A model generated the notes under the pieces. It worked only from the letters and a program-made list of their open reading frames with translations, did not search any database and was not told the origin of the DNA. A stretch of 64,000 bases of DNA, from sequence record MK327937.1; one strand, written 5' to 3'. Each line of letters starts with the position of its first letter. Within the stretch, counting starts at the first letter, position 1. Shown in pieces: positions 288-49,558 of the stretch. This stretch comes from Escherichia phage vB_EcoM_G10400. The position numbers were made by a program, and so were the translations under genes.

Positions 288-2267
288 ATGACTTTATTAT
301 CTCCGGGCATTGAGCTCAAAGAAACTACGGTTCAAAGCACCGTGGTTAATAACTCTACTGGTACAGCAGCTTTGGCCGGTAAATTCCAGTGGGGTCCTGC
401 TTTTCAGATTAAACAGGTTACAAACGAAGTAGATTTAGTTAATACTTTTGGTCAACCTACAGCTGAAACTGCTGACTATTTTATGTCTGCAATGAATTTC
501 TTACAATATGGAAATGATTTGCGAGTTGTGCGCGCTGTCGATAGAGATACCGCTAAAAACTCATCTCCGATTGCTGGTAATATTGAATACACAATTTCTA
601 CCCCAGGTAGTAACTACGCGGTTGGAGATAAAATCACGGTCAAATATGTTTCAGATGATATTGAAACTGAAGGTAAAATTACTGAAGTAGACGCAGATGG
701 AAAAATTAAGAAAATTAATATTCCTACTGCAAAAATTATTGCTAAAGCTAAAGAAGTTGGCGAATACCCAGCATTAGGTTCTAACTGGACTGCAGAAATT
801 TCTTCATCTTCTTCCGGTTTAGCTGCAGTAATAACTCTTGGAAAAATTATTACTGATTCCGGTATTTTATTAGCTGAAATCGAGAGCGCTGAAACTGCTA
901 TGACAGCAGTTGATTTTCAGGCAAATCTTGAAAAATATGGAATTCCAGGAGTAGTAGCTCTCTATCCAGGCGAATTAGGCGATAAAATTGAAATTGAAAT
1001 CGTATCTAAAGCTGACTATGCGAAAGGCGCTTCTGCATTACTCCCAATTTATCCAGGTGGTGGTACTCGCGCATCTACTGCCAAAGCAGTGTTTGGATAT
1101 GGACCACAAACTGATTCACAGTACGCCATTATAGTTCGTCGTAATGATGCTATTGTTCAAAGCGTTGTTCTTTCAACTAAGCGTGGTGAAAAAGATATTT
1201 ACGATAGTAACATCTATATCGATGACTTTTTCGCAAAAGGTGGTTCAGAATATATTTTTGCAACTGCACAAAACTGGCCAGAAGGCTTCTCTGGAATTTT
1301 AACTCTGTCTGGTGGATTATCATCAAATGCTGAAGTAACAGCAGGAGATTTGATGGAAGCTTGGGACTTCTTTGCTGACCGTGAATCTGTTGACGTTCAA
1401 CTGTTTATTGCGGGTTCTTGTGCTGGTGAATCTTTAGAAACAGCATCTACTGTCCAAAAACACGTCGTTTCAATTGGTGATGCTCGCCAGGATTGCTTAG
1501 TATTGTGCTCTCCTCCGCGTGAAACTGTAGTTGGAATTCCTGTAACTCGTGCAGTAGATAATTTAGTTAACTGGAGAACTGCGGCAGGTTCATACACTGA
1601 TAATAACTTTAATATCAGTTCAACCTATGCAGCAATTGATGGTAACTATAAGTATCAGTATGACAAATATAATGATGTGAATCGTTGGGTTCCATTAGCA
1701 GCTGATATTGCTGGTTTATGCGCAAGAACTGATAACGTATCTCAGACTTGGATGTCTCCAGCTGGTTATAATCGTGGCCAAATTTTGAACGTTATTAAAC
1801 TGGCTATTGAAACTCGCCAGGCTCAGCGCGACCGTTTATACCAAGAAGCTATCAACCCGGTAACCGGTACAGGTGGTGATGGTTACGTATTGTATGGTGA
1901 TAAAACAGCTACTTCTGTTCCTTCTCCATTTGATCGTATTAACGTTCGTCGTCTGTTTAATATGTTGAAAACGAATATCGGACGTAGTTCAAAATATCGT
2001 TTGTTCGAATTAAACAACGCGTTTACTCGTTCATCATTCCGCACAGAAACTGCCCAGTACTTGCAGGGAATTAAAGCTCTCGGTGGAATTTATGAATATC
2101 GTGTAGTTTGCGATACAACAAATAATACTCCGTCAGTAATTGATAGAAATGAGTTTGTTGCAACATTCTACATCCAACCGGCTCGTAGTATAAATTATAT
2201 CCAACTTAATTTCGTCGCAACTGCTACTGGTGCAGATTTTGATGAGTTAACTGGTCTTGCAGGTTAA
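288..2267 (+). CDS. 18: Tail sheath protein
   Basis: 659-aa ORF, length and sequence match T4 gp18; SD upstream. Confidence 0.95.
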   Translation: MTLLSPGIELKETTVQSTVVNNSTGTAALAGKFQWGPAFQIKQVTNEVDLVNTFGQPTAETADYFMSAMNFLQYGNDLRVVRAVDRDTAKNSSPIAGNIEYTISTPGSNYAVGDKITVKYVSDDIETEGKITEVDADGKIKKINIPTAKIIAKAKEVGEYPALGSNWTAEISSSSSGLAAVITLGKIITDSGILLAEIESAETAMTAVDFQANLEKYGIPGVVALYPGELGDKIEIEIVSKADYAKGASALLPIYPGGGTRASTAKAVFGYGPQTDSQYAIIVRRNDAIVQSVVLSTKRGEKDIYDSNIYIDDFFAKGGSEYIFATAQNWPEGFSGILTLSGGLSSNAEVTAGDLMEAWDFFADRESVDVQLFIAGSCAGESLETASTVQKHVVSIGDARQDCLVLCSPPRETVVGIPVTRAVDNLVNWRTAAGSYTDNNFNISSTYAAIDGNYKYQYDKYNDVNRWVPLAADIAGLCARTDNVSQTWMSPAGYNRGQILNVIKLAIETRQAQRDRLYQEAINPVTGTGGDGYVLYGDKTATSVPSPFDRINVRRLFNMLKTNIGRSSKYRLFELNNAFTRSSFRTETAQYLQGIKALGGIYEYRVVCDTTNNTPSVIDRNEFVATFYIQPARSINYIQLNFVATATGADFDELTGLAG

Positions 2268-7329: not shown

Positions 7330-8895
7330 ATGACTATCAAAACTAAAGCTGAACTTTTGAACAAATGGAAGCCATTACTGGAAGGTGAAGGTTTACCGGA
7401 AATTGCTAATAGCAAACAAGCGATTATCGCTAAAATCTTTGAAAACCAGGAAAAAGATTTCCAGACAGCTCCGGAATATAAAGACGAAAAAATTGCTCAG
7501 GCATTCGGTTCTTTCTTAACAGAAGCTGAAATCGGTGGTGACCACGGTTACAATGCTACCAACATCGCCGCAGGTCAGACTTCTGGCGCAGTAACTCAGA
7601 TTGGCCCAGCTGTTATGGGTATGGTACGTCGTGCTATTCCTAACCTGATTGCTTTCGATATTTGTGGTGTTCAGCCAATGAACAGCCCGACTGGCCAGGT
7701 ATTCGCGCTGCGCGCAGTATATGGTAAAGATCCAATCGCTTCCGGCGCTAAAGAAGCATTCCACCCAATGTATGGTCCAGATGCAATGTTCTCTGGTCAG
7801 GGTGCTGCTAAGAAATTCGCTGCTTTGAAAGCAAGTGATACTCTTGAAGTCGGAACTATTTACACTCACTTCTTCCAGGAAACTGGTACAGTATATCTGC
7901 AAGCTACAGCAGCTAAACAAATTGATTCAGGCGCATCTGACGCAGACAAATTAGATGCTGAAATTAAGAAACAAATGGAAGCTGGTGTACTGGTAGAAAT
8001 CGCTGAAGGTATGGCTACTTCTATCGCTGAACTTCAGGAAGGTTTCAACGGTTCTACCGATAACCCATGGAATGAAATGGGCTTCCGTATCGATAAACAA
8101 GTTATCGAAGCTAAATCTCGTCAGCTGAAAGCTGCTTACTCTATTGAATTAGCACAAGACCTTCGCGCTGTTCACGGTATGGATGCTGATGCTGAACTGT
8201 CTGGTATTCTGGCTACCGAAATTATGCTGGAAATCAACCGCGAAGTTGTTGATTGGATTAACTACTCCGCTCAGGTTGGTAAATCTGGTATGACCCTGAC
8301 TCCGGGTTCTAAAGCTGGTGTATTTGACTTCCAGGACCCAATCGATATTCGTGGTGCTCGCTGGGCAGGTGAATCCTTTAAAGCTCTGTTGTTCCAGATT
8401 GACAAAGAAGCAGTTGAAATTGCTCGTCAGACTGGTCGCGGCGAAGGTAACTTCATTATCGCTTCCCGTAACGTAGTTAACGTTCTGGCTTCAGTTGATA
8501 CCGGCATTTCTTATGCTGCACAAGGTCTGGCTACTGGCTTTAACACTGATACTACCAAGTCAGTATTTGCTGGTGTTCTGGGTGGTAAATACCGTGTATA
8601 TATCGACCAGTATGCTAAACAGGATTATTTCACCGTAGGTTATAAAGGTCCGAACGAAATGGATGCTGGTATTTACTATGCTCCATATGTAGCTCTGACT
8701 CCGCTGCGTGGTTCTGATCCGAAGAACTTCCAACCGGTAATGGGATTCAAAACTCGTTACGGTATCGGTATCAACCCATTTGCAGAATCCGCTGCTCAGG
8801 CTCCGGCTTCTCGCATCCAGAGCGGTATGCCTTCTATTCTGAATAGCCTTGGTAAAAACGCTTACTTCCGCCGTGTATATGTTAAAGGTATCTAA
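7330..8895 (+). CDS. 23: Major capsid protein
   Basis: 521-aa ORF matching T4 gp23 in size and sequence. Confidence 0.97.
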   Translation: MTIKTKAELLNKWKPLLEGEGLPEIANSKQAIIAKIFENQEKDFQTAPEYKDEKIAQAFGSFLTEAEIGGDHGYNATNIAAGQTSGAVTQIGPAVMGMVRRAIPNLIAFDICGVQPMNSPTGQVFALRAVYGKDPIASGAKEAFHPMYGPDAMFSGQGAAKKFAALKASDTLEVGTIYTHFFQETGTVYLQATAAKQIDSGASDADKLDAEIKKQMEAGVLVEIAEGMATSIAELQEGFNGSTDNPWNEMGFRIDKQVIEAKSRQLKAAYSIELAQDLRAVHGMDADAELSGILATEIMLEINREVVDWINYSAQVGKSGMTLTPGSKAGVFDFQDPIDIRGARWAGESFKALLFQIDKEAVEIARQTGRGEGNFIIASRNVVNVLASVDTGISYAAQGLATGFNTDTTKSVFAGVLGGKYRVYIDQYAKQDYFTVGYKGPNEMDAGIYYAPYVALTPLRGSDPKNFQPVMGFKTRYGIGINPFAESAAQAPASRIQSGMPSILNSLGKNAYFRRVYVKGI

Positions 8896-8910
8896 TCTTT
8901 GACGATTTAA

Positions 8911-8929
8911 GGGACCTTCGGGTCCCTTT
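8911..8929 (+). terminator. Rho-independent terminator after gene 23
   Basis: GGGACC-UUCG-GGUCCC hairpin followed by U-tract, 16 nt after stop. Confidence 0.7.
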
Positions 8930-8943
8930 AGTTGTTTTTATGG

Positions 8944-8951
8944 TATAAATA
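8944..8951 (+). promoter_or_regulatory. Late promoter TATAAATA upstream of gene 24
   Basis: Exact octamer 27 nt upstream of ATG 8979. Confidence 0.55.
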
Positions 8952-8978
8952 AATCATATAAACTGAAAGGAAAGCGCA

Positions 8979-10262
8979 ATGGCTAAAATCAACGAACTTC
9001 TGCGCGAATCAACCACAACGAATAGCAACTCAATCGGTCGCCCAAATCTCGTTGCTTTGACTCGCGCTACCACTAAATTAATATATTCTGACATTGTAGC
9101 AACGCAAAGAACTAATCAACCTGTTGCTGCTTTTTATGGTATCAAATACCTTAACCCGGATAACGAATTTACATTTAAAACTGGTGCTACTTACGCCGGC
9201 GAAGCTGGATATGTAGACCGAGAACAAATCACAGAATTAACAGAAGAGTCTAAATTAACTCTCAATAAGGGCGATTTATTCAAATATAATAATATCGTTT
9301 ATAAAGTATTAGAAGATACACCATTTGCTGATATTGAAGAAAGCGATTTAGAATTAGCTCTTCAGATTGCAATTGTTCTTTTAAAGGTTCGTCTATTTTC
9401 TGACGCAGCGTCAACAAGCAAATTTGAAAGCTCTGATAGTGAAATTGCGGATGCTAGATTCCAGATTAATAAATGGCAAACCGCAGTTAAATCTCGTAAA
9501 CTTAAAACTGGTATCACAGTTGAATTAGCACAAGATTTAGAAGCAAATGGATTCGATGCTCCTAATTTCTTGGAAGATTTGCTTGCAACCGAAATGGCAG
9601 ATGAAATCAATAAAGATATTCTGCAGTCTTTGATTACAGTGTCAAAACGCTATAAAGTTACAGGAATTACTGATACTGGATTCATCGATTTGAGTTATGC
9701 ATCTGCACCTGAAGCTGGTCGTTCATTATACCGAATGGTATGTGAAATGGTTTCACATATCCAGAAAGAATCAACTTATACAGCAACGTTCTGTGTTGCT
9801 TCAGCTCGTGCCGCTGCGATTCTTGCTGCATCAGGTTGGTTAAAACATAAACCAGAAGATGACAAATATCTTTCACAAAATGCCTACGGGTTCTTAGCTA
9901 ATGGTTTACCGCTTTATTGCGATACCAACAGCCCATTAGATTATGTAATCGTTGGCGTAGTAGAAAATATCGGTGAAAAAGAAATTGTTGGATCAATTTT
10001 CTATGCTCCGTATACAGAAGGTCTTGACTTAGATGACCCTGAACATGTAGGTGCATTTAAAGTTGTAGTTGATCCAGAAAGTTTGCAGCCATCTATCGGT
10101 TTATTAGTTAGATATGCTTTATCTGCAAATCCTTACACTGTAGCAAAAGATGAAAAAGAAGCAAGAGTAATTGATGGTGGAGACATGGATAAAATGGCGG
10201 GTCGTTCAGATTTGTCTGTTTTATTAGGTGTTAAGCTACCAAAAATTATCATTGATGAATAA
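8979..10262 (+). CDS. 24: Capsid vertex protein
   Basis: 427-aa ORF, gp23 paralog, T4 synteny. Confidence 0.95.
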   Translation: MAKINELLRESTTTNSNSIGRPNLVALTRATTKLIYSDIVATQRTNQPVAAFYGIKYLNPDNEFTFKTGATYAGEAGYVDREQITELTEESKLTLNKGDLFKYNNIVYKVLEDTPFADIEESDLELALQIAIVLLKVRLFSDAASTSKFESSDSEIADARFQINKWQTAVKSRKLKTGITVELAQDLEANGFDAPNFLEDLLATEMADEINKDILQSLITVSKRYKVTGITDTGFIDLSYASAPEAGRSLYRMVCEMVSHIQKESTYTATFCVASARAAAILAASGWLKHKPEDDKYLSQNAYGFLANGLPLYCDTNSPLDYVIVGVVENIGEKEIVGSIFYAPYTEGLDLDDPEHVGAFKVVVDPESLQPSIGLLVRYALSANPYTVAKDEKEARVIDGGDMDKMAGRSDLSVLLGVKLPKIIIDE

Positions 10263-40519: not shown

Positions 40520-42107
<1,588 letters not shown>

Positions 42108-42134
42108 AATAAAATGGGCCTTGCGGCCCACTCC

Positions 42135-42637
42135 TTAAAAGTATTTTTTAAAACTCATCATAACTTTATCATCAACATCATTATCAATCTGTGCTACAAG
42201 GTAAGATGACAGTTCTACTTCTTGCGGCGCGGATTGAACATTATCAGAATTAAGGTATTCACGAATCCAAGGATATGGATGTTTAACCGGAGCATCGGTA
42301 ATTGGGCATGGAAGACCGCACTGTTTCATACGAGATACAGTTAAGTAATCAATAAAGCTCCACATGCTATTTGTATTTAATCCAGGAACATCGCCGTCTT
42401 TAAATAAATGAACTGCCCAATCTTTTTCTTGGCGGTTAACTTCCATGAAAATATCAACTGCTTCTTGTTCACACTCTTGAGCAATTTTAACCCATTCATC
42501 GCCGTCAGTGCCAAGTTGAAGTTGACGAATAATATATTGGGTGCCTTTAAGATGAAGCTGCTCATCACGTGCAATGAACTTCATAATCTTGGCATTACCT
42601 TCCATGATTTCCATGTTCTTATGGAAGTTAAAGGTAC
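42135..42637 (-). CDS. nrdB: Ribonucleotide reductase beta subunit, exon 2
   Basis: ORF continues R2 homology (..NMEIMEGNAKIMKFIARDEQLHLKGTQ..); 3' splice site placed after intron-terminal G so that the junction codon UGU restores the conserved Cys. Confidence 0.75.
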
Positions 42638-43727
42638 CGTATGTTCGATTGAGTTCGCTAATTCTCAACCCGTTCTCTTATGAACTGCTGCATGTTACCA
42701 TGCAGTCCAGACTATATCACAATCCCGGAGGGATTCTCCCCATTTCGAGTCGCTTGACCCTACGTCCGAAGACTAGTCGTTGAACCTTGTTTTGCAATTG
42801 TCGCCGTGCCATCGTTTATATGTTGATGGTGATAAATCTTTCTTATCACAATATGGACAATTCAATTGAATTCTATTTGGATTTAATTTACATCTGTCAT
42901 TATGTTTTAGATAAAATCCAGGACCTTTACCAATGTGACCACAAAAATCACATGTGATTTCTTTTTGTGCAGGATGGGTCCCGTTCTTAACCATTTCTAA
43001 TGTTTTTGCTGATGTTCTTTTCTTATGGTCTTCTGATAAGAAATGATGTGAACCGTCATTTACCCGTTTTGATTGAGTTTCTGACTGCATTTTACCACCG
43101 CAAAATACATGAGTACCTTCTTTTATAGCTGCAATATTGCGTTCTTTAACTTTTGCAATATGCTCAGCTTGTTGAAAATTATGTATACCTAATGCAACTC
43201 TATTTAAATTAGATTTACGCTGTATTTCACCATCTAAAAGATGAAATGTACCATTTTCTATCTTAGATTTAATAGAGGCAATATTTTTAGCTCGTACTTC
43301 AGGGATATTAAAAATCTGGATTTCTCTAGATTTTGCGGCTTTAGAAGCTAATTCAGAAATTTCTTCAGGAGAATATTTCATTCTAAGCTTTATAGCATGA
43401 CAAGCCTTGTAATCTTTTTGAGCTAAATGTATATCATAATGTTCCTGTATAGAAAGGCACATCAAATTATCTAAATCATTATTTTCACGGTTACCGTCTT
43501 TATGATGGATTTCGTATGTTCTTCCATCAGAATCTTTAGGTATAGGTCCGTTAGCATCTATCCAAATTTTTCTATAGTTCAATTGTGCATCCTCTTAAAA
43601 GTATAATCATATTTATATTATACTAATTAAAGGTGCAAGCAAAACCTTGGCTGCTAGTTTTCCTATAAAGGACTTTCCAGCAATTAAAGGAGTTTTCGAT
43701 AAACGTTACCGTTTAAAGGCGCATTTT
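42638..43727 (-). mobile_element. Group I self-splicing intron in nrdB (about 1090 nt) carrying I-TevIII
   Basis: R2 reading frame is interrupted by about 1.1 kb containing an HNH endonuclease ORF; boundaries inferred from protein homology and U/G splice-site rules. Confidence 0.7.
42773..43582 (-). CDS. I-TevIII: Intron-encoded HNH homing endonuclease I-TevIII (full length)
   Basis: 269-aa ORF inside nrdB intron; N-terminal HNH motif (EIHHKDGNRENNDLDNL) and C-terminal Cys/His-rich zinc-finger-like region. Confidence 0.8.
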   Translation of the reverse strand: MNYRKIWIDANGPIPKDSDGRTYEIHHKDGNRENNDLDNLMCLSIQEHYDIHLAQKDYKACHAIKLRMKYSPEEISELASKAAKSREIQIFNIPEVRAKNIASIKSKIENGTFHLLDGEIQRKSNLNRVALGIHNFQQAEHIAKVKERNIAAIKEGTHVFCGGKMQSETQSKRVNDGSHHFLSEDHKKRTSAKTLEMVKNGTHPAQKEITCDFCGHIGKGPGFYLKHNDRCKLNPNRIQLNCPYCDKKDLSPSTYKRWHGDNCKTRFND

Positions 43728-44403
43728 ACGCAAAAGATACATAAAAACGAATAGCTTCTAAGGCATTAATAACGTGCAAACAGAGGTAAAGAGATTTCAT
43801 TAAAGCACGTTTAGCTTCGGCTTCTTGTTTAATAGCTCGGTTTAAACGAAAGACGGCATCAGGAGATTCTTTAGCTAGTTCTACAAATTCTTTAGCATTT
43901 TCCCATTCACGAGTTTTAATCAGAACATCATCATAATAACGTCCAATGGATTCAGCACGTTTCATAATAGCTTCATCTAATACAATCTCATCAAATACCT
44001 TTGACGGATCAGTATAAAGATTTCGCATGATATGAGTATATGAACGACTATGAATAGTTTCACTAAAAGTCCATGTAGCAACCCATGTATCAAGGCTTGG
44101 GTCTGAAATTAATGACATAAGTACAGCAGATGGCGCACGACCCTGAATGCTATCCAAAAGTGATTGATACTTCAGGTTATTAGTAAAAATATCTTGCTGA
44201 TATTGAGGAAGCTTGTTAAATTGTGCAGCATCCATCATCAAGTTTACTTCTTCAGGACGCCAGAAAAATGACAATTGCTTTTCGGTTAAATCTTCAAAAA
44301 CTTTATGGCGTTGAATATCATAACGCGCAATACCAAGACCTGAACCAAAAAACATAGGTTCTTTTAAAACATCAACTGGATTTGTATTAAAAACTGTGCT
44401 CAT
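43728..44403 (-). CDS. nrdB: Ribonucleotide reductase beta subunit, exon 1
   Basis: 225 codons ending ..LEAIRFYVSFA, homologous to R2 N-terminal half. Confidence 0.8.
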
Positions 44404-44454
44404 AAATTTTCCGCTTAGTTAATAGTTGGTGACTCGTCCGTGAGTCAAATTATA

Positions 44455-46719
44455 TCATAATTTACAGGATGAACAATCTTCAGCTTTTGGAGTTTCTATT
44501 TCATAATCATCAGTACCAGAACCATCGCGGGTATTATGATAATAGAAATTTTTAATGCCATAATACCATCCGTATAGCATATCATCAATCATTATTGACA
44601 TTGGAACCTTTCCTTTTGGAAAAATCTGCGGGTCATAATATGTATTCGCTGAAGCTGATTGACATACCCATTTCAGCATAATAGCTACCTGCGTAAGATA
44701 AGGTTTATTACCTTTCTTAGCTAATTTCCATGTATAATCATATAGGTCTATGTTATGTTCAATATTGGGCACGACTTGATTAAAGGAACCCTCTTTTGAT
44801 TCTTTAACAGAGACTGGTCCACGTGGAGGCTCGATACCGTTTGTACTGTTAGAAACTTGGGAAGATGACTCACATGGCATAAGTGCTGATAGTGTGCTAT
44901 TACGGATGCCAAAGAGCTTAAGGTCTTCCCGCAGCGACGACCAGTCACAAACGTATTTTGGAGCTGCGATTTGGTCAATCTTTTTATTGTACCAGTCGAT
45001 AGGTAATTCGCCTCGAGACCAACGAGTGTCTGAATAATATTCACAAGGTCCTTTTTCTTTGGCGAGTTTAATGGATGCTTTAATGAGTCCATACTGTAAT
45101 CTCTCAAATAGTTCATGTGTTAAATCGTTAGCATCTTCATAAGAAGCAAAGTTACTTGCCAACCAAGCTGCATAGTTAGTAACACCTACACCGAGGTTAC
45201 GACGCTTTTTAGCTTTTTCTGCTTCAGGAACTGGATATCCTTGGTAATCCAAAAGATTATCAAGAGCACGAACCTGGACTTCTGCCAATTCATTAATTTT
45301 ATCTTGGTCTTGCCAGTCAAAATTATCCAGTACGAATGCAGAGAGAGTACACAATCCAATTTCAGCATCAGGACTATTCACATCATTTGTTGGAATAGCA
45401 ATTTCACAGCACAAGTTACTCTGACGAATAGGTGCCTTTTCACGAATAAACGGAGTATAGTTATTCGTATTATCAATGAACTGTACATAAATCCTTGCTG
45501 TTCCTGAGCGTTCAGTCATGAGCAATTCAAATAGTTCACGAGCTTTAATACGCTTTTTACGAATATTAGGGTCTTTTTCTGCTGCTTCGTACAATTCACG
45601 GAAACGGTCTTGGTCTTTAAAATAAGAATAATAAAGTTCGCCACCCATTTCATGCGGACTAAACAAAGTAATGTAATCGTTCTTTCCGAATCGTTCCATC
45701 ATTAGGTCATTCAGCTGGACGCCATAATCCATATGACGGATACGGTTTTCTTCTACACCTTTGTTATTTTTCAAAACGAGAAGATTTTCAACTTCCAAAT
45801 GCCAAATAGGATAATAAGCAGTAGCAGCGCCGCCACGAATTCCACCCTGTGAGCATGATTTAACTGCAGTCTGAAAATGTTTCCAAAAAGGAATAACACC
45901 GGTATGGCGTACTTCACCCATGCCAATCTTAGAACCTTCGGCACGAATCATACCAACGTTAATACCAATTCCAGCGCGTTTAGAGATATATTCAACAATC
46001 GAAGCGGAAGCCTTATTGATAGACTTCAGCGAATCACCTGCCTCAATAACAACACATGAACTAAACTGTCGAGTCGGAGTACGACAACCAGCCATAATAG
46101 GAGTTGGTAATGAAATCTGTCGAGTAGATACTGCTTCATAAAAACGAATAACATGTTTTAATCTATCAACAGGTTCATCTTGATGCAATGCCATTCCAAT
46201 AGTCATAAATGCAAACTGCGGAGTTTCATAAATTTGACCAGTGGTTTTATCTTTAACTAAATATTTTTCTTTTAATTGCATCGCCCCGGAATAAGTAAAT
46301 TCCATATCCCGCTCGTGCTTAATTTTTGATTCTAAAAATGTAATTTCTTCTGCTGAATATTTTGACAACAATTCAGGGTCATATTTACCTGCATTTACAC
46401 AGTAAGAAATATGGTCAATAAATGAACGTGGTTCATACTGCCCATAAACATGCTTACGAAGAGCAAACATTAAACAGCGTGCAGCTACATATTGATAATC
46501 AGGTTCTTCAACCGAAATAGAATTCGCAGCAGCCTTAATGACAATAGTCTGAATATCATCAGTTGTCATTCCATCACGGAGATATGATTTAATATTTTCA
46601 TATAATTCATAAGGATCTACTGATGTTCCCTCAGATGCCCAAGATAAAACTTTAATAATTTTTTGCGGGTCAAAGCTCTGAGAAACACCACTACTTTTGA
46701 TAACATTAATTAATTGCAT
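44455..46719 (-). CDS. nrdA: Ribonucleotide reductase alpha subunit
   Basis: 754-aa ORF, size and sequence match T4 NrdA; C-terminal CxxC tail. Confidence 0.95.
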   Translation of the reverse strand: MQLINVIKSSGVSQSFDPQKIIKVLSWASEGTSVDPYELYENIKSYLRDGMTTDDIQTIVIKAAANSISVEEPDYQYVAARCLMFALRKHVYGQYEPRSFIDHISYCVNAGKYDPELLSKYSAEEITFLESKIKHERDMEFTYSGAMQLKEKYLVKDKTTGQIYETPQFAFMTIGMALHQDEPVDRLKHVIRFYEAVSTRQISLPTPIMAGCRTPTRQFSSCVVIEAGDSLKSINKASASIVEYISKRAGIGINVGMIRAEGSKIGMGEVRHTGVIPFWKHFQTAVKSCSQGGIRGGAATAYYPIWHLEVENLLVLKNNKGVEENRIRHMDYGVQLNDLMMERFGKNDYITLFSPHEMGGELYYSYFKDQDRFRELYEAAEKDPNIRKKRIKARELFELLMTERSGTARIYVQFIDNTNNYTPFIREKAPIRQSNLCCEIAIPTNDVNSPDAEIGLCTLSAFVLDNFDWQDQDKINELAEVQVRALDNLLDYQGYPVPEAEKAKKRRNLGVGVTNYAAWLASNFASYEDANDLTHELFERLQYGLIKASIKLAKEKGPCEYYSDTRWSRGELPIDWYNKKIDQIAAPKYVCDWSSLREDLKLFGIRNSTLSALMPCESSSQVSNSTNGIEPPRGPVSVKESKEGSFNQVVPNIEHNIDLYDYTWKLAKKGNKPYLTQVAIMLKWVCQSASANTYYDPQIFPKGKVPMSIMIDDMLYGWYYGIKNFYYHNTRDGSGTDDYEIETPKAEDCSSCKL

Positions 46720-47036
46720 AAGTCCTCAACTTGAAAATCGTCTTTAAACAATCGGTTAACTATATGAGCTATTATATCACCATGACACGGCTTTGGTTTA
46801 CATGTGCATCCTAGCCTCATTCCACGTAAAGGCTCTAAATGTGCTTTAGTTATTTCTCCGGATTTAATTCGACGTATAAAATCTTTTTTGAATAATTCAA
46901 TGGCAGCCTCCCGGCTGCCAGCATCTTTACCGACGTAATTTCCCCAAAATGTACCACGGTGAATATTAACATCAAAGTCGGATTTATATTTATTCACTAC
47001 CTGGCATAGACGGCCCGCGCGGTGATAATTCGTCAT
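46710..47036 (-). CDS. Hypothetical protein (nrdA.1 position)
   Basis: 108-aa ORF. Confidence 0.55.
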
Positions 47037-47253
47037 ATTGTTTTTCCGTTAAAACAGTAATATCATAGTAACAATCAGAAGAAGTTTTAACTGTAGAAAT
47101 TTTATTATCAAAATACTCACGAGTCATTTTATGAGTATAATATTTTTTGCCATAAATGATAATAGGCTGATTTGGTCCTGGAACTTCTAACTCACTTGGG
47201 TTAGGAAGTGTAAAAAGAACTACACCAGAAGTATCTTTAAATCGTAAAATCAT
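46990..47253 (-). CDS. Hypothetical protein (nrdA.2 position)
   Basis: 87-aa ORF. Confidence 0.5.
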
Positions 47254-47276: not shown

Positions 47277-47588
47277 TTACACCGCCATTTTTCCTTTCAA
47301 GACGCCGTGGGGCTGATAATCTTTGAGAACGAAATCTTTAGGCCTGAGTTTAAGAATGTATTCCAATTGTTCTTTAGTAGAAAGATAGCGGAATTTATAA
47401 GGCAATCCGCCTATTACCAGTTCACAAAGCTCTTTAGGTTCACGACGCAAAATTTCTTTACATTGTTCTACGTGATTCATATAGATATGAGTATTACCAC
47501 CGGAAAATATCAAATCTCCCGGAATAAGATTACACATCTTAGCTACAATATGAACTAACGTAGCATATGATGCAATATTAAATGGAAG
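47277..47588 (-). CDS. td: Thymidylate synthase, exon 2
   Basis: Encodes LPFNIASYATLVHIV...; intron ends ..CUGAACAUAAUG at 47589, as recalled for the T4 td intron. Confidence 0.9.
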   Translation of the reverse strand, partial: LPFNIASYATLVHIVAKMCNLIPGDLIFSGGNTHIYMNHVEQCKEILRREPKELCELVIGGLPYKFRYLSTKEQLEYILKLRPKDFVLKDYQPHGVLKGKMAV

Positions 47589-48604
47589 CATTATGTTCAG
47601 ATAAGGTCGTTAATCTTACCCCGGAATTATATCCAGCTGCATGTCACCATGCAGATCAGACTATATCTCCAACTTGTTAAAGCAAGTTGTCTATCGTTTC
47701 GAGTCACTTGACCCTACTCCCCAAAGGGATAGTCGTTAGGCATTTATGTAGAACCAATTCCATTTATCAGATTTTACACGATAAGTAACTAATCCAGACG
47801 AAATTTTAAAATGTCTAGTTGCATCTGCTGCACAATCAAAAATAACCCCATCACATGAAATCTTTTTAATATTACTAGGCTTTTTACCTTTCATCTTTTC
47901 TGATATTTTAGATTTAGTTATGTCTGAATGCTTATGATTAAAGAATGAATTATTTTCACCTGAACGATTTCTGCATTTACTACAAGTATAAGCAGAAGTT
48001 TGTATGCGAACACCGCACTTACAAAACTTATGGGTTTCTGGATTCCAACGCCCGTTTTTACTTCCGGGTTTACTGTAAAGAGCTTTCCGACCATCAGGTC
48101 CAAGTTTAAGCATCTTAGCTTTAACAGTTTCAGAACGTTTCTTAATAATTTCTTCTTTTAATGGATGCGTAGAACATGTATCACCAAACGTTGCATCAGC
48201 AATATTGTATCCATTAATTTTAGAATTAAGCTCTTTAATCCAAAAATTTTCTCGTTCAATAATCAAATCTTTCTCATATGGAATTTCTTCCAAAATAGAA
48301 CATTCAAACACATTACCATGTTTGTTAAAAGACCTCTGAAGCTTTATAGAAGAATGGCATCCTTTTTCTAAATCTTTAAAATGCCTCTTCCATCTCTTTT
48401 CAAAATCTTTAGCACTTCCTACATATACTTTATTGTTTAAAGTATTTTTAATCTGATAAATTCCGCTTTTCATAAATACCTCTTTAAATATAGAAGTATT
48501 TATTAAAGGGCAGTCCTACAATTTAGCACGGGATTGTCTACTAGAGAGGTTCCCCGTTTAGATAGATTACAAGTATAAGTCACCTTATACTCAGGCCTCA
48601 ATTA
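47589..48604 (-). mobile_element. Group I self-splicing intron in td (1016 nt) carrying I-TevI
   Basis: 5' end UAAUUGAGGCCUGAGUAUAAGGUGACUUAUAC.. follows exon 1 ..CUUGGGU; length 1016 nt equals the T4 td intron. Confidence 0.9.
47736..48473 (-). CDS. I-TevI: Intron-encoded GIY-YIG homing endonuclease I-TevI
   Basis: 245-aa ORF with N-terminal GIY-YIG motif (SGIYQIKNTLNNKVYVGSA) inside td intron. Confidence 0.93.
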   Translation of the reverse strand: MKSGIYQIKNTLNNKVYVGSAKDFEKRWKRHFKDLEKGCHSSIKLQRSFNKHGNVFECSILEEIPYEKDLIIERENFWIKELNSKINGYNIADATFGDTCSTHPLKEEIIKKRSETVKAKMLKLGPDGRKALYSKPGSKNGRWNPETHKFCKCGVRIQTSAYTCSKCRNRSGENNSFFNHKHSDITKSKISEKMKGKKPSNIKKISCDGVIFDCAADATRHFKISSGLVTYRVKSDKWNWFYINA

Positions 48605-49153
48605 ACCCAAGAAAACATCTACTGATCGTTGATACCACTGCAAATCCAAATAGCCATTACGCACATTAAACTGATAGAACATATGACAAGGCGGTAATGC
48701 CATTTGCTTAAGTTCTGCCGGATTCCATGCTGAAACAATTTGACGCCTATCATTTGGCAGTTTTTTAATACGATCAATAACTTCTATAATTTGGTCTACA
48801 CCGCCAAAATCACGCCATTGTTTTCCATAAATTGGACCAAGTTCACCGCTATGGTATCCTAAATCTTTTGCTTGATTTTCGTAATTTTCATCCCAGACTG
48901 TTTTGCCTTGAATTAATGAATTATGTTGAATTAATCGCAAATCATTTACGTTAGTACTTCCTGATAAGAACCACAATAACTCAGAAATACATGCATTCCA
49001 GGCGAGCTTCTTAGTTGTTACTGCAGGAAAACCTTTAGTTAAATCCCAGCGTAATTTAGTACCGAACAAAGCAATTGTTCCTGTGCCCGTTCGGTCATCA
49101 GTTTCATAACCATTTTCAAAAATGTCTTTAATTAAATCTTGGTATTGTTTCAT
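48605..49153 (-). CDS. td: Thymidylate synthase, exon 1
   Basis: 183 codons ending ..YQRSVDVFLG; exon 1 plus exon 2 gives 286 aa. Confidence 0.9.
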
Positions 49154-49198: not shown

Positions 49199-49558
49199 TC
49201 AATACGGTTTAGCATCAAATTTTCTCTCAATTTCAGGCGTGAAATATAATTCTTTACCGCGTTTGGAAAAGCGACCAATAATATGATAATTATTCTCATC
49301 AAACGTGATATTACCAATATCCATAGCTTTCAACCAAATATCGATATTTCTATCCAGCTTTATGTCAAAATTCCAATACGGAGAACTATTACCGAAAATA
49401 CTGCAAGCGGATTCAGTGAAACAACTGCTATAAATCTTGTCTTTAGGAACTACTAATTGATAGACACCTTTAATAAACTGAGGACCCTGCCACTTTGGCT
49501 GTTTCGCGTCTTCTTCTAATAGAATAGGGTAATAATTAAAATTCATATTTTCCGCCAC
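49199..49558 (-). CDS. Hypothetical protein between td and frd
   Basis: 119-aa ORF (GTG 49558 or ATG 49546) with no recognised motif. Confidence 0.5.
   Translation of the reverse strand: MAENMNFNYYPILLEEDAKQPKWQGPQFIKGVYQLVVPKDKIYSSCFTESACSIFGNSSPYWNFDIKLDRNIDIWLKAMDIGNITFDENNYHIIGRFSKRGKELYFTPEIERKFDAKPY

Follow-up and report, generated by a model that had tools for sequence, protein, structure and literature searches.

A full-length group I intron encoding I-TevIII in the nrdB gene of Escherichia phage vB_EcoM_G10400

The nrdB gene of this phage is interrupted by a 1090-nt group I intron (42638..43727 of the window, i.e. the whole 64,000-nt stretch of DNA analysed; all features given below are on the minus strand), which has an intact and conserved ribozyme core and carries an intact open reading frame for the endonuclease I-TevIII. 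It is very probably the T-even nrdB intron in its full-length, RB3-type form, an element already known from some 80 sequenced phages besides RB3, and no sequence evidence contradicting this explanation was found. After transcription the intron would fold as a group I ribozyme and excise itself, linking U43728 to G42637 to give an intact 392-aa NrdB (R2). The I-TevIII gene, located in the P6 loop, is probably silent early, with its ribosome-binding site concealed in a hairpin, and probably expressed late from a promoter (TATAAATA) inside that hairpin; repair off an intron-bearing copy would then carry over the intron and some of the adjoining exon sequence. We infer splicing, cleavage and late expression in this phage by analogy with T4 and RB3.

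Exon 1 (43728..44403) comprises 676 nt, made up of 225 codons and the first base, U, of the codon for Cys226, and exon 2 (42135..42637) comprises 503 nt including the stop codon, opening with the GU of the same Cys codon. The reading frame that contains exon 1 (44403..43726) extends to ...RFYVSFA and is then closed by TAA. Exon 1 ends in ...UUUGCGU, so that the base at the 5' splice site (43728) is U; at the 3' splice site the final base of the intron (42638) is G, and the GU at 42637 opens exon 2, which begins GUACCUUU. When U43728 is joined to G42637 a UGU Cys codon results, and the spliced nrdB CDS has 1179 nt encoding 392 aa, with ...RFYVSFA-C-TFNFHKNMEIMEGNAKI... across the junction. Exactly this junction (after U43728 and before the GU at 42637, with the Cys restored) had been proposed in an earlier note made from the sequence, and it proves correct by two kinds of gapless alignment. 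E. coli R2 (PDB 1piy and others, E=1e-125) aligns with the spliced NrdB without a gap at the junction, and in this protein alignment the Cys created by splicing is the Cys of E. coli FYVSFAC. A 400-nt probe spanning the spliced junction gives one ungapped 400-nt match, at 98.5% identity, to the intronless nrdB of other phages (HP3, Pinarejo, LZ2 and others). The nrdB gene of phage G4507 is also uninterrupted (1179 nt), and the insertion point relative to it falls exactly at the position of the intron here. If T4 and RB3 are joined at the homologous sites, introns of 598 nt and 1091 nt and proteins of 388 aa and 392 aa result, respectively.

The insert has the secondary structure of a group I ribozyme. 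The 5' half of the core (43639..43727) runs from the 3' strand of P1 to the 5' strand of P6 and contains the P1 3' strand (43722..43719), P2 (43714..43701), the P3 5' strand (43692..43689), P4 (43682..43677 with 43657..43652), P5 (43672..43661) and the P6 5' strand (43645..43639). The 3' half (42638..42795) extends from the P6 3' strand (42795..42789) to the terminal G (42638) by way of P7 (42778..42774 with 42714..42710), P7.1 (42773..42764; GUC-UUCG-GAC), P7.2 (42760..42747; GGGUC-AAGC-GACUC, with one compensatory change), the P3 3' strand (42739..42736), P8 (42735..42721), P9 (42705..42688), P9.1 (42685..42672) and P9.2 (42668..42649). P1 is a 4-bp helix (GCGU/GCGC) between exon bases 43731..43728 and intron bases 43722..43719; the wobble pair U43728.G43722 is possible in it, and this pair is invariant in six phages. 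All 13 helices from P1 to P9.2 are complementary. In the comparison of the six phages, 100% of 389 cells pair and there are 8 compensatory pairs, versus none with slid partners, and these pairing values were matched by none of 500 shuffles. The compensatory changes are located in P2, P5, P7.2, P9 and P9.2, while P3, P4, P7 and P8 vary little or not at all and are hence uninformative for covariation. The claim of a group I intron of about 1.09 kb in nrdB is confirmed. The two IA-type extra hairpins, P7.1 and P7.2, sit between P7 and the 3' strand of P3, which would fit subgroup IA2.

A covariance-model search had been suggested as a check in the earlier note. Scanning the whole window against Rfam at the gathering threshold (50 bits for RF00028) yielded zero matches, the full-length intron included. 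The separate halves do match RF00028, the 3' half with 35.6 bits (E=5e-7) and the 5' half with 17.4 bits, both scores being below the threshold; GUUCAACGACUA and GAUAUAGUCU align to the RF00028 consensus with high posterior probability, and the conserved elements of the core (P3 to P9 with the pseudoknot of P3 and P7, the R element and the S element) are all present. We ascribe the low score of the full-length intron to the 785-nt ORF insertion in its P6 loop. The nrdB introns of T4 and phage a20 likewise remain below the gathering score, and the natural ORF-less derivative in phage PD112 exceeds it (68.6 bits). With both halves matching, T4 and a20 failing as well and the ORF-less derivative passing, the empty scan was rejected as evidence against an intron.

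The same empty scan, along with the many records that annotate the two halves apart (as 'nrdB_1'/'nrdB_2' or as two beta-subunit CDSs), would be expected if there were no intron at all and nrdB were a pseudogene broken by a free-standing HNH gene, its halves either unjoined or made as separate polypeptides. We regard this as extremely improbable, given that the inserted DNA holds a complete, covarying group I core, follows a U able to form the U.G pair of P1, ends in G and is positioned base-exactly relative to intronless alleles; moreover, self-splicing is described for the intron of T4, whose core is nearly identical (PMC2988022), and exon 2 alone does not contain the iron ligands that R2 has in its N-terminal part. 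Two further readings, an intein and a pair of independent R2 fragments, were considered and rejected, since the insert has stops in the nrdB frame (a TAA falls on the 5' splice site) and a ribozyme core. The split nrdB annotations are annotation artefacts: nrdB is properly annotated as a single spliced CDS of the minus strand, join(44403..43728, 42637..42135), and I-TevIII as an ORF within its intron, in place of the two 'beta subunit' genes and a 'hypothetical protein' given in many public records.

The I-TevIII ORF (42773..43582) encodes 269 aa from a TTG start to a UAG stop (42775..42773); it loops out from P6, and its final 23 nt are shared with P6 (3' strand), J6/7 and P7 (5' strand). The description of this protein as an intact HNH endonuclease of 269 aa stands: internal stops are absent, Pfam HNH_3 matches residues 4-48 at 6e-13, and the ORF is full length. 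The H-N-H residues H26, H27, N39 and H48 are all in the positions that they have in RB3, and two zinc fingers (CX2CX12-13HX3C) start at residues 211 (C211/C214) and 242 (C242/C245). The H-N-H and zinc-finger residues of RB3 I-TevIII have been defined by mutation, and cleavage and homing by the RB3 protein have been demonstrated (PMC1865063); every residue mutated in that study is conserved here. The two proteins share 266 of 269 residues (98.9%), the differences being Y23, K59 and T265 here for D, Q and A in RB3, and the copy in phage a20 differs from the present one by a single amino acid. dN/dS for I-TevIII is 0.08-0.24, and about 0.1 even in comparison with the 89%-identical copy of S16. 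I-TevIII is an intact ORF under purifying selection. A sequence search of the PDB with I-TevIII found nothing meaningful (best E=0.29), and hence no close relative with a solved structure. Residues 74-114 also give a marginal match to Pfam FlgM (26.2 bits; cutoff 25 bits), which the context does not support.

An intron that splices, but is immobile and passed on by vertical descent only, with I-TevIII inactive or unexpressed as in T4, would be another way to read these data. The only I-TevIII protein tested biochemically, that of RB3, differs from this one at three residues, of which Y23 (D23 in RB3) is three positions ahead of the catalytic H26 and H27, and decay of the ORF is common in nature, as the T4-type 598-nt and the ORF-less ~300-nt versions of the intron testify. 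We nevertheless judge this very unlikely: the ORF is full length with its catalytic residues and zinc ligands complete, Y23 is the majority state (Y23 and T265 are both shared with a20 and SF4), and the low dN/dS extends to the divergent S16 copy. Recent mobility is also argued by the near-identity of the intron to that of a phage of another genus and by a co-conversion tract relative to G4507, as described below.

Several candidate control elements are found in the intron upstream of I-TevIII. An RNA hairpin (43586..43637) is predicted in which the I-TevIII Shine-Dalgarno sequence GAGG (43594..43591) pairs with an upstream CCUU; its energy is -14.9 kcal/mol (z=-3.85), and equal stability was reached by none of 200 shuffles. 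The T4 late-promoter consensus TATAAATA (43617..43610) lies in the loop of this hairpin, and regulation of I-TevIII by hairpin and late promoter may be presumed to operate in this phage by analogy. Directly upstream of the late promoter is a 27-mer (43618..43644) that is identical to the reconstituted homing site at 21 of 27 positions. This is the top match in the 64-kb window besides exon 2, and the value of 21 exceeds the maximum of 20 among 50 shuffles. Homing-site-like operators overlap the promoters of I-Tev genes (PMC2988022), and the 27-mer is a putative I-TevIII operator. A scan of 42000..44800 for sigma-70 promoters and terminators, which is uninformative on T4 middle and late promoters, returned 11 hits versus 12.5 expected by shuffle.

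Comparison with G4507 points to a footprint of recent transfer. G4507, which is intronless, is the closest genome (99.2% identical over 25 kb), and yet 59 differences from it fall in 43728..43927, compared with 1-6 per 100 nt elsewhere in exon 1. This segment, the 3'-terminal ~200 nt of exon 1 (43728..43930), is 98-100% identical to Mosigvirus a20, whereas the flanks of a20 are only 75-80% identical; the intron itself is 99.8% identical to that of a20, a phage of a different genus. This end of exon 1 has thus probably travelled with the intron, and such a co-conversion tract beside the intron indicates recent homing. The earlier suggestion of an active homing element is probably right, with indirect support from the tract, the near-identity across genera and the low dN/dS. 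The direction of the change (gain of the intron here versus its precise loss in G4507) is beyond proof by such comparisons. The element is a mobile group I intron of textbook kind and raises no new question, and its comparison with G4507 and a20 illustrates homing with co-conversion of an exon.

The earlier note had reported that no gene lies in the 51 bp between nrdA and nrdB, and this is so. nrdA, for the ribonucleotide reductase large subunit (754 aa; Pfam ATP-cone, Ribonuc_red_lgN and Ribonuc_red_lgC, the last at 3e-137), occupies 44455..46719 and ends at 44455, nrdB starts at 44403, and the 51-nt spacer (44404..44454), which is the site of mobE or hef in other phages, is without an ORF. 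The gap is likewise 51 nt in T2H, G4507 and Pu-Krd-SF4, with nothing annotated inside. An intact I-TevIII combined with an empty spacer is seen in 41 of the 60 best-matching records, and mobE or hef is present in the other 19; the layout with intact I-TevIII and without mobE is the commoner one among these 60 records. Since the spacer contains neither mobE nor hef, the intron would rely on its own endonuclease for its spread.

nrdB here has kept the T2-type MobE nick site, and mobE is absent. It is possible, at odds somewhat short of even, that I-TevIII homing brought in the intron and ~200 nt of exon 1 very recently, from a donor with an intron nearly identical to that of a20, and that the phage is at once an I-TevIII donor and a predicted MobE recipient. 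If this is true, the phage would act as donor (through I-TevIII) and as recipient (through MobE) in mixed infections, a two-way homing conflict over one gene; it would also form with G4507 a near-isogenic natural pair with and without the intron, useful for measuring homing and fitness cost. Such an acquisition would not imply a new kind of element.

A close known counterpart is the nrdB intron of RB3 with its I-TevIII (Robbins et al. 2007, PMC1865063; Eddy & Gold 1991, as cited in PMC2988022). It has the same insertion site, a 269-aa ORF with a TTG start, the same H-N-H motif and the same double zinc-finger layout, and its DNA is 98.8% identical to the intron in the window. It is 1091 nt long, versus 1090 nt here, owing to one additional A near its 3' end; its P9 shows a compensatory change from G-C to A-U plus a G.U, and its P6 a U.G. 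The likeness to RB3 that had been noted holds for the intron but not for the spacer, as the RB3 genome (KM606994) carries a 732-bp mobE between nrdA and nrdB, which the window lacks.

The nrdB intron of T4 shares its insertion site and splice junction with the one in the window, and the two cores differ at no more than 2 of 269 aligned positions, but the I-TevIII of T4 is defective and the intron depends on MobE to mobilise it in trans (Wilson & Edgell 2009, PMC2790892). The state of T4 given in the earlier note is correct: the T4 record places mobE and nrdB.1 between the two reductase genes and lists I-TevIII as a 'defective' protein of 97 aa. The T4 intron (598 nt) lacks the segment that corresponds to 43028..43518, a frame-shifting deletion of 491 nt between imperfect repeats GAAGA(A/C)CATA, which takes out the entire H-N-H domain, and the 97-aa remnant ORF matches only the C-terminal zinc-finger part. 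Two patches of exon 1 differ between T4 and the window; they include the region nicked by MobE, in which the window resembles T2. T4 NrdB has 388 aa instead of 392 aa.

The layout of the window, with a spacer of ~51 nt and a full-length intron, is shared by, among others, Pu-Krd-SF1 to SF7, fPS-2, SHFML-11, vB_EcoM_112, phiD1, Ozark and Mosigvirus a20. The intron-bearing relatives without mobE are 97-98% identical over 2.6 kb and differ by point substitutions only; no record in the searched collection is identical to the window. Mini-introns in vB_vPM_PD112, BYEP01 and DCP80 have the insertion site and ribozyme core found here, but their I-TevIII ORF has been deleted between flanking ACAATTG repeats, leaving ~300 nt, and they exceed the gathering score of Rfam.

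A further parallel is offered by the td gene of T4, which likewise belongs to nucleotide metabolism and holds a group I intron; the endonuclease encoded there, I-TevI, has its ORF looped from the core and controlled, as is proposed for I-TevIII, by a late promoter and a hairpin at the ribosome-binding site. A copy of the td intron with I-TevI is also present in the 64-kb window. The two systems differ in that I-TevI is a GIY-YIG and I-TevIII an H-N-H endonuclease, and in that the td intron has a different host gene and a different homing site.

The nrdB gene (minus strand) is split by a 1090-nt intron. The exon 1 ORF (44403..43726) ends in ...RFYVSFA followed by TAA, and the frame is picked up again in exon 2 at ...TFNFHKNMEIMEGNAKI; cuts after U43728 and before G42637 remove 1090 nt, form a UGU codon (Cys226) at the joint and leave a CDS of 1179 nt (392 aa). 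The spliced 392-aa protein matches Pfam Ribonuc_red_sm and aligns with E. coli R2 structures (E=1e-125), gap-free at the junction (FYVSFAC-TFNF vs FYVSFAC-SFAF). Two DNA-level comparisons fix the predicted junction to a single base: a 400-nt probe of the spliced junction aligns with the intronless nrdB of other phages (HP3, Pinarejo, LZ2 and others) as one ungapped 400-nt piece (98.5%), and the alignment with the uninterrupted 1179-nt nrdB of the relative vB_EcoM_G4507 breaks exactly at 42637/43730. All three comparisons confirm the split and the restored Cys proposed in the earlier note. Cuts at the homologous positions of T4 and RB3 would yield a 598-nt intron and a 388-aa protein for T4, and 1091 nt and 392 aa for RB3.

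An Rfam scan of the whole window at the gathering threshold gave no match, which could be held against an intron; we consider this miss an artefact, as the T4 nrdB intron and the full-length intron of phage a20 also miss the gathering score, whereas 68.6 bits are reached by the nrdB intron of vB_vPM_PD112, a natural form of the same intron from which the ORF has been lost between two ACAATTG repeats. The score is below threshold because a 785-nt ORF occupies the P6 loop. The covariance-model search suggested earlier does recover both halves of a group I intron below gathering: under permissive filters RF00028 (Intron_gpI) scores 35.6 bits (E=5e-7) on the insert's 3' part (42928..42688), where the R and S elements, P8 and P9 are aligned with high confidence, and the 5' part (43744..43585), searched by itself, scores 17.4 bits over model positions 1 to ∼105. 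Helices P1, P2, P3, P4, P5, P6, P7, P7.1, P7.2, P8, P9, P9.1 and P9.2 could be drawn on the window with all proposed pairs complementary. When this structure is tested on six phage cores (the window, RB3, T4, S16, HY03 and DCP80), 389 out of 389 cells are paired (100%, a value inflated by deriving the structure from the window sequence), and compensatory double changes, which are not so inflated, occur in eight pairs (in P2, P5, P7.2, P9 and P9.2); sliding the 3' partners by 1–3 columns leaves no compensatory pairs, and none of 500 shuffles reached the observed values. The catalytic helices P3, P4, P7 and P8 neither support nor contradict the structure, because they are invariant or nearly so. 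The window core differs from that of the T4 nrdB intron, described as self-splicing (PMC2988022), at two out of 269 aligned positions. The P7.1 and P7.2 hairpins fit an IA-type architecture, in line with the IA2-type suggestion. Intron positions 960–1088 (P7' to P9.2) have 80–96% nucleotide matches in unrelated Pectobacterium, Klebsiella, Vibrio, Aeromonas and Pseudomonas phages, mostly where nothing is annotated and in one case within a DNA polymerase gene. The matches presumably belong to further group I introns that have this 3' core segment in common.

The intron ORF (43582..42773, minus strand) encodes a 269-aa I-TevIII, an H-N-H homing endonuclease, from a TTG start with GAGG upstream at 8-nt spacing; the identical TTG start is annotated in RB3, SF4 and a20. 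As claimed before, it is full-length: it matches Pfam HNH_3 (6e-13) and keeps, in the same numbering, the catalytic residues H26, H27, N39 and H48 defined by Robbins et al. (PMC1865063) and both CX2CX12-13HX3C zinc fingers (C211/C214 and C242/C245) needed for DNA binding (PMC1865063). It differs from the characterised RB3 enzyme at three residues (Y23D, K59Q and T265A) and from the a20 protein at one. Purifying selection on this ORF is indicated by its dN/dS: 0.12 relative to the S16 copy, which is 89% identical, and 0.08 relative to HY03. Over its final 23 nt the ORF shares sequence with the 3' strand of P6, with J6/7 and with the 5' strand of P7; the UAG stop codon sits in GACUAGUC. Residues 74–114, part of the linker that joins the zinc fingers to the H-N-H domain, gave a marginal match to Pfam FlgM (anti-sigma-28), which at 26.2 bits (cutoff 25) is probably spurious.

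Upstream of the ORF, 43637..43586 folds as a hairpin (-14.9 kcal/mol, z=-3.85) that pairs the Shine-Dalgarno GAGG with an upstream CCUU and holds in its loop the T4 late-promoter consensus TATAAATA (43617..43610). Late transcripts begun inside the hairpin would free the I-TevIII ribosome-binding site, so hairpin and promoter together may control expression of the enzyme. A segment just upstream (43644..43618) agrees with the reconstituted homing site in 21 out of 27 positions (the best match in the window apart from exon 2, and above all 50 shuffles); this putative operator-like site is consistent with those noted in a review (PMC2988022).

At least 80% of the intron is present in 84 records of the phage collection; in other records it has the T4-type form of 598 nt or is a mini-intron of ∼300 nt. 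With the intron of Escherichia phage a20 (Mosigvirus) the window intron shares 99.8% identity: in 100-nt bins, identity is 98–100% from ∼43930 to ∼42700 and 96% in the bin spanning the 3' splice site, and elsewhere (nrdA, the remaining nrdB and denA) 65–89%. The comparison with G4507 shows a cluster of 59 differences in the part of exon 1 that adjoins the intron (200 nt, 43728..43927), with 1–6 per 100 nt in the remaining exon 1 and 11 in the 4.6 kb downstream of the intron (eight of them in exon 2). Both patterns are the scar expected of homing with exon co-conversion and support the active homing suggested by the earlier note. Intron gain in the window phage is favoured over precise loss in G4507, because the exon 1 tract looks imported, though the direction is not strictly proven. 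G4507 (NC_054919.1; intronless nrdB at 7888..9066) also has a 51-nt nrdA–nrdB spacer; further differences from it cluster at the nrdA 3' end (18 at 44528..44627) and, in smaller clusters, at 46928..47127. Natural ORF-less mini-introns of ∼300 nt are found in PD112 (1501..1812), BYEP01 and DCP80; since the PD112 ORF is excised exactly between the ACAATTG repeats (one overlaps the TTG start; the last base of the second is the first G of P6's 3' strand), recurrent ORF deletion by microhomology is suggested.

The td gene (thymidylate synthase; 47277..49153, minus strand) is also split (exon ORFs 49153..48602 and 47591..47277), with an intact GIY-YIG I-TevI ORF of 245 aa (48473..47736) in between; part of the insert (47867..47637) matches Intron_gpI below threshold (42.5 bits, E=4.6e-9). 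By these matches the window carries two endonuclease-bearing group I introns.

The window is part of a T4-like phage genome (Tequatrovirus). The best public match to 30001–55000 is G4507 (99.2% identity, 96% query coverage), followed by RB3 and SHFML-11 (∼97%), and the minus-strand gene order is that of pseudo-T4: alc, rnlA, denA, nrdB, nrdA, nrdA.1, nrdA.2, td, td.1, frd. A 119-aa ORF between frd and td (49199..49558, minus strand) is the td.1 annotated in T2H (99% identity over 115 aa), its true start probably being the ATG four codons in. Between the nrdB stop and denA (42105..42131, minus strand), a GC-rich hairpin, GGGCC-GCAA-GGCCC (42129..42116), precedes a T-rich run; a terminator is annotated at the equivalent place in G4507, and the consensus terminator scan did not report this hairpin. 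The mechanical denA ORF (144 aa, GTG 42131) reads through the hairpin, so the true start is probably ATG 42107 (136 aa), matching the annotation in relatives.

nrdA ends at 44455, and the 51 nt up to the nrdB ATG are ORF-free, as had been noted. Within this spacer (44404..44454, minus strand) lies a short inverted repeat, GACTC-ACGGAC-GAGTC, that no T run follows; phages without mobE are reported to lack a terminator in the spacer (PMC2790892). Among the best 60 matching records with the full-length intron, 41 likewise have no nrdA–nrdB insert and the other 19 have mobE, or hef in U5. MobE-dependent nicks were mapped by Wilson and Edgell to nt 122–126 of T2 nrdB, and codon 42 was reported to be AAG in all phages without mobE (PMC2790892). 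Because the window nrdB has a single base change from T2H over nt 103–156 (a stretch in which T4 has many) and AAG as codon 42, the phage is a candidate MobE recipient.

This RB3-type nrdB intron with I-TevIII is an element already known, and dozens of public genomes contain near-identical copies; of practical use are the corrected, spliced annotation of nrdB and a correction on RB3 mobE. The earlier note's account of T4 proved right: in the T4 reference record mobE (426 bp) and nrdB.1 lie between nrdA and nrdB, where the window has neither, and I-TevIII, annotated as defective, has 97 aa, compared with 269 aa here; in the alignment T4 lacks 491 nt (window 43518..43028) between imperfect GAAGA(A/C)CATA repeats, a frame-shifting deletion that costs the protein its H-N-H domain. 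The likeness to RB3 holds for the intron but not for the nrdA–nrdB spacer, where RB3 has a 732-bp mobE that the window lacks.
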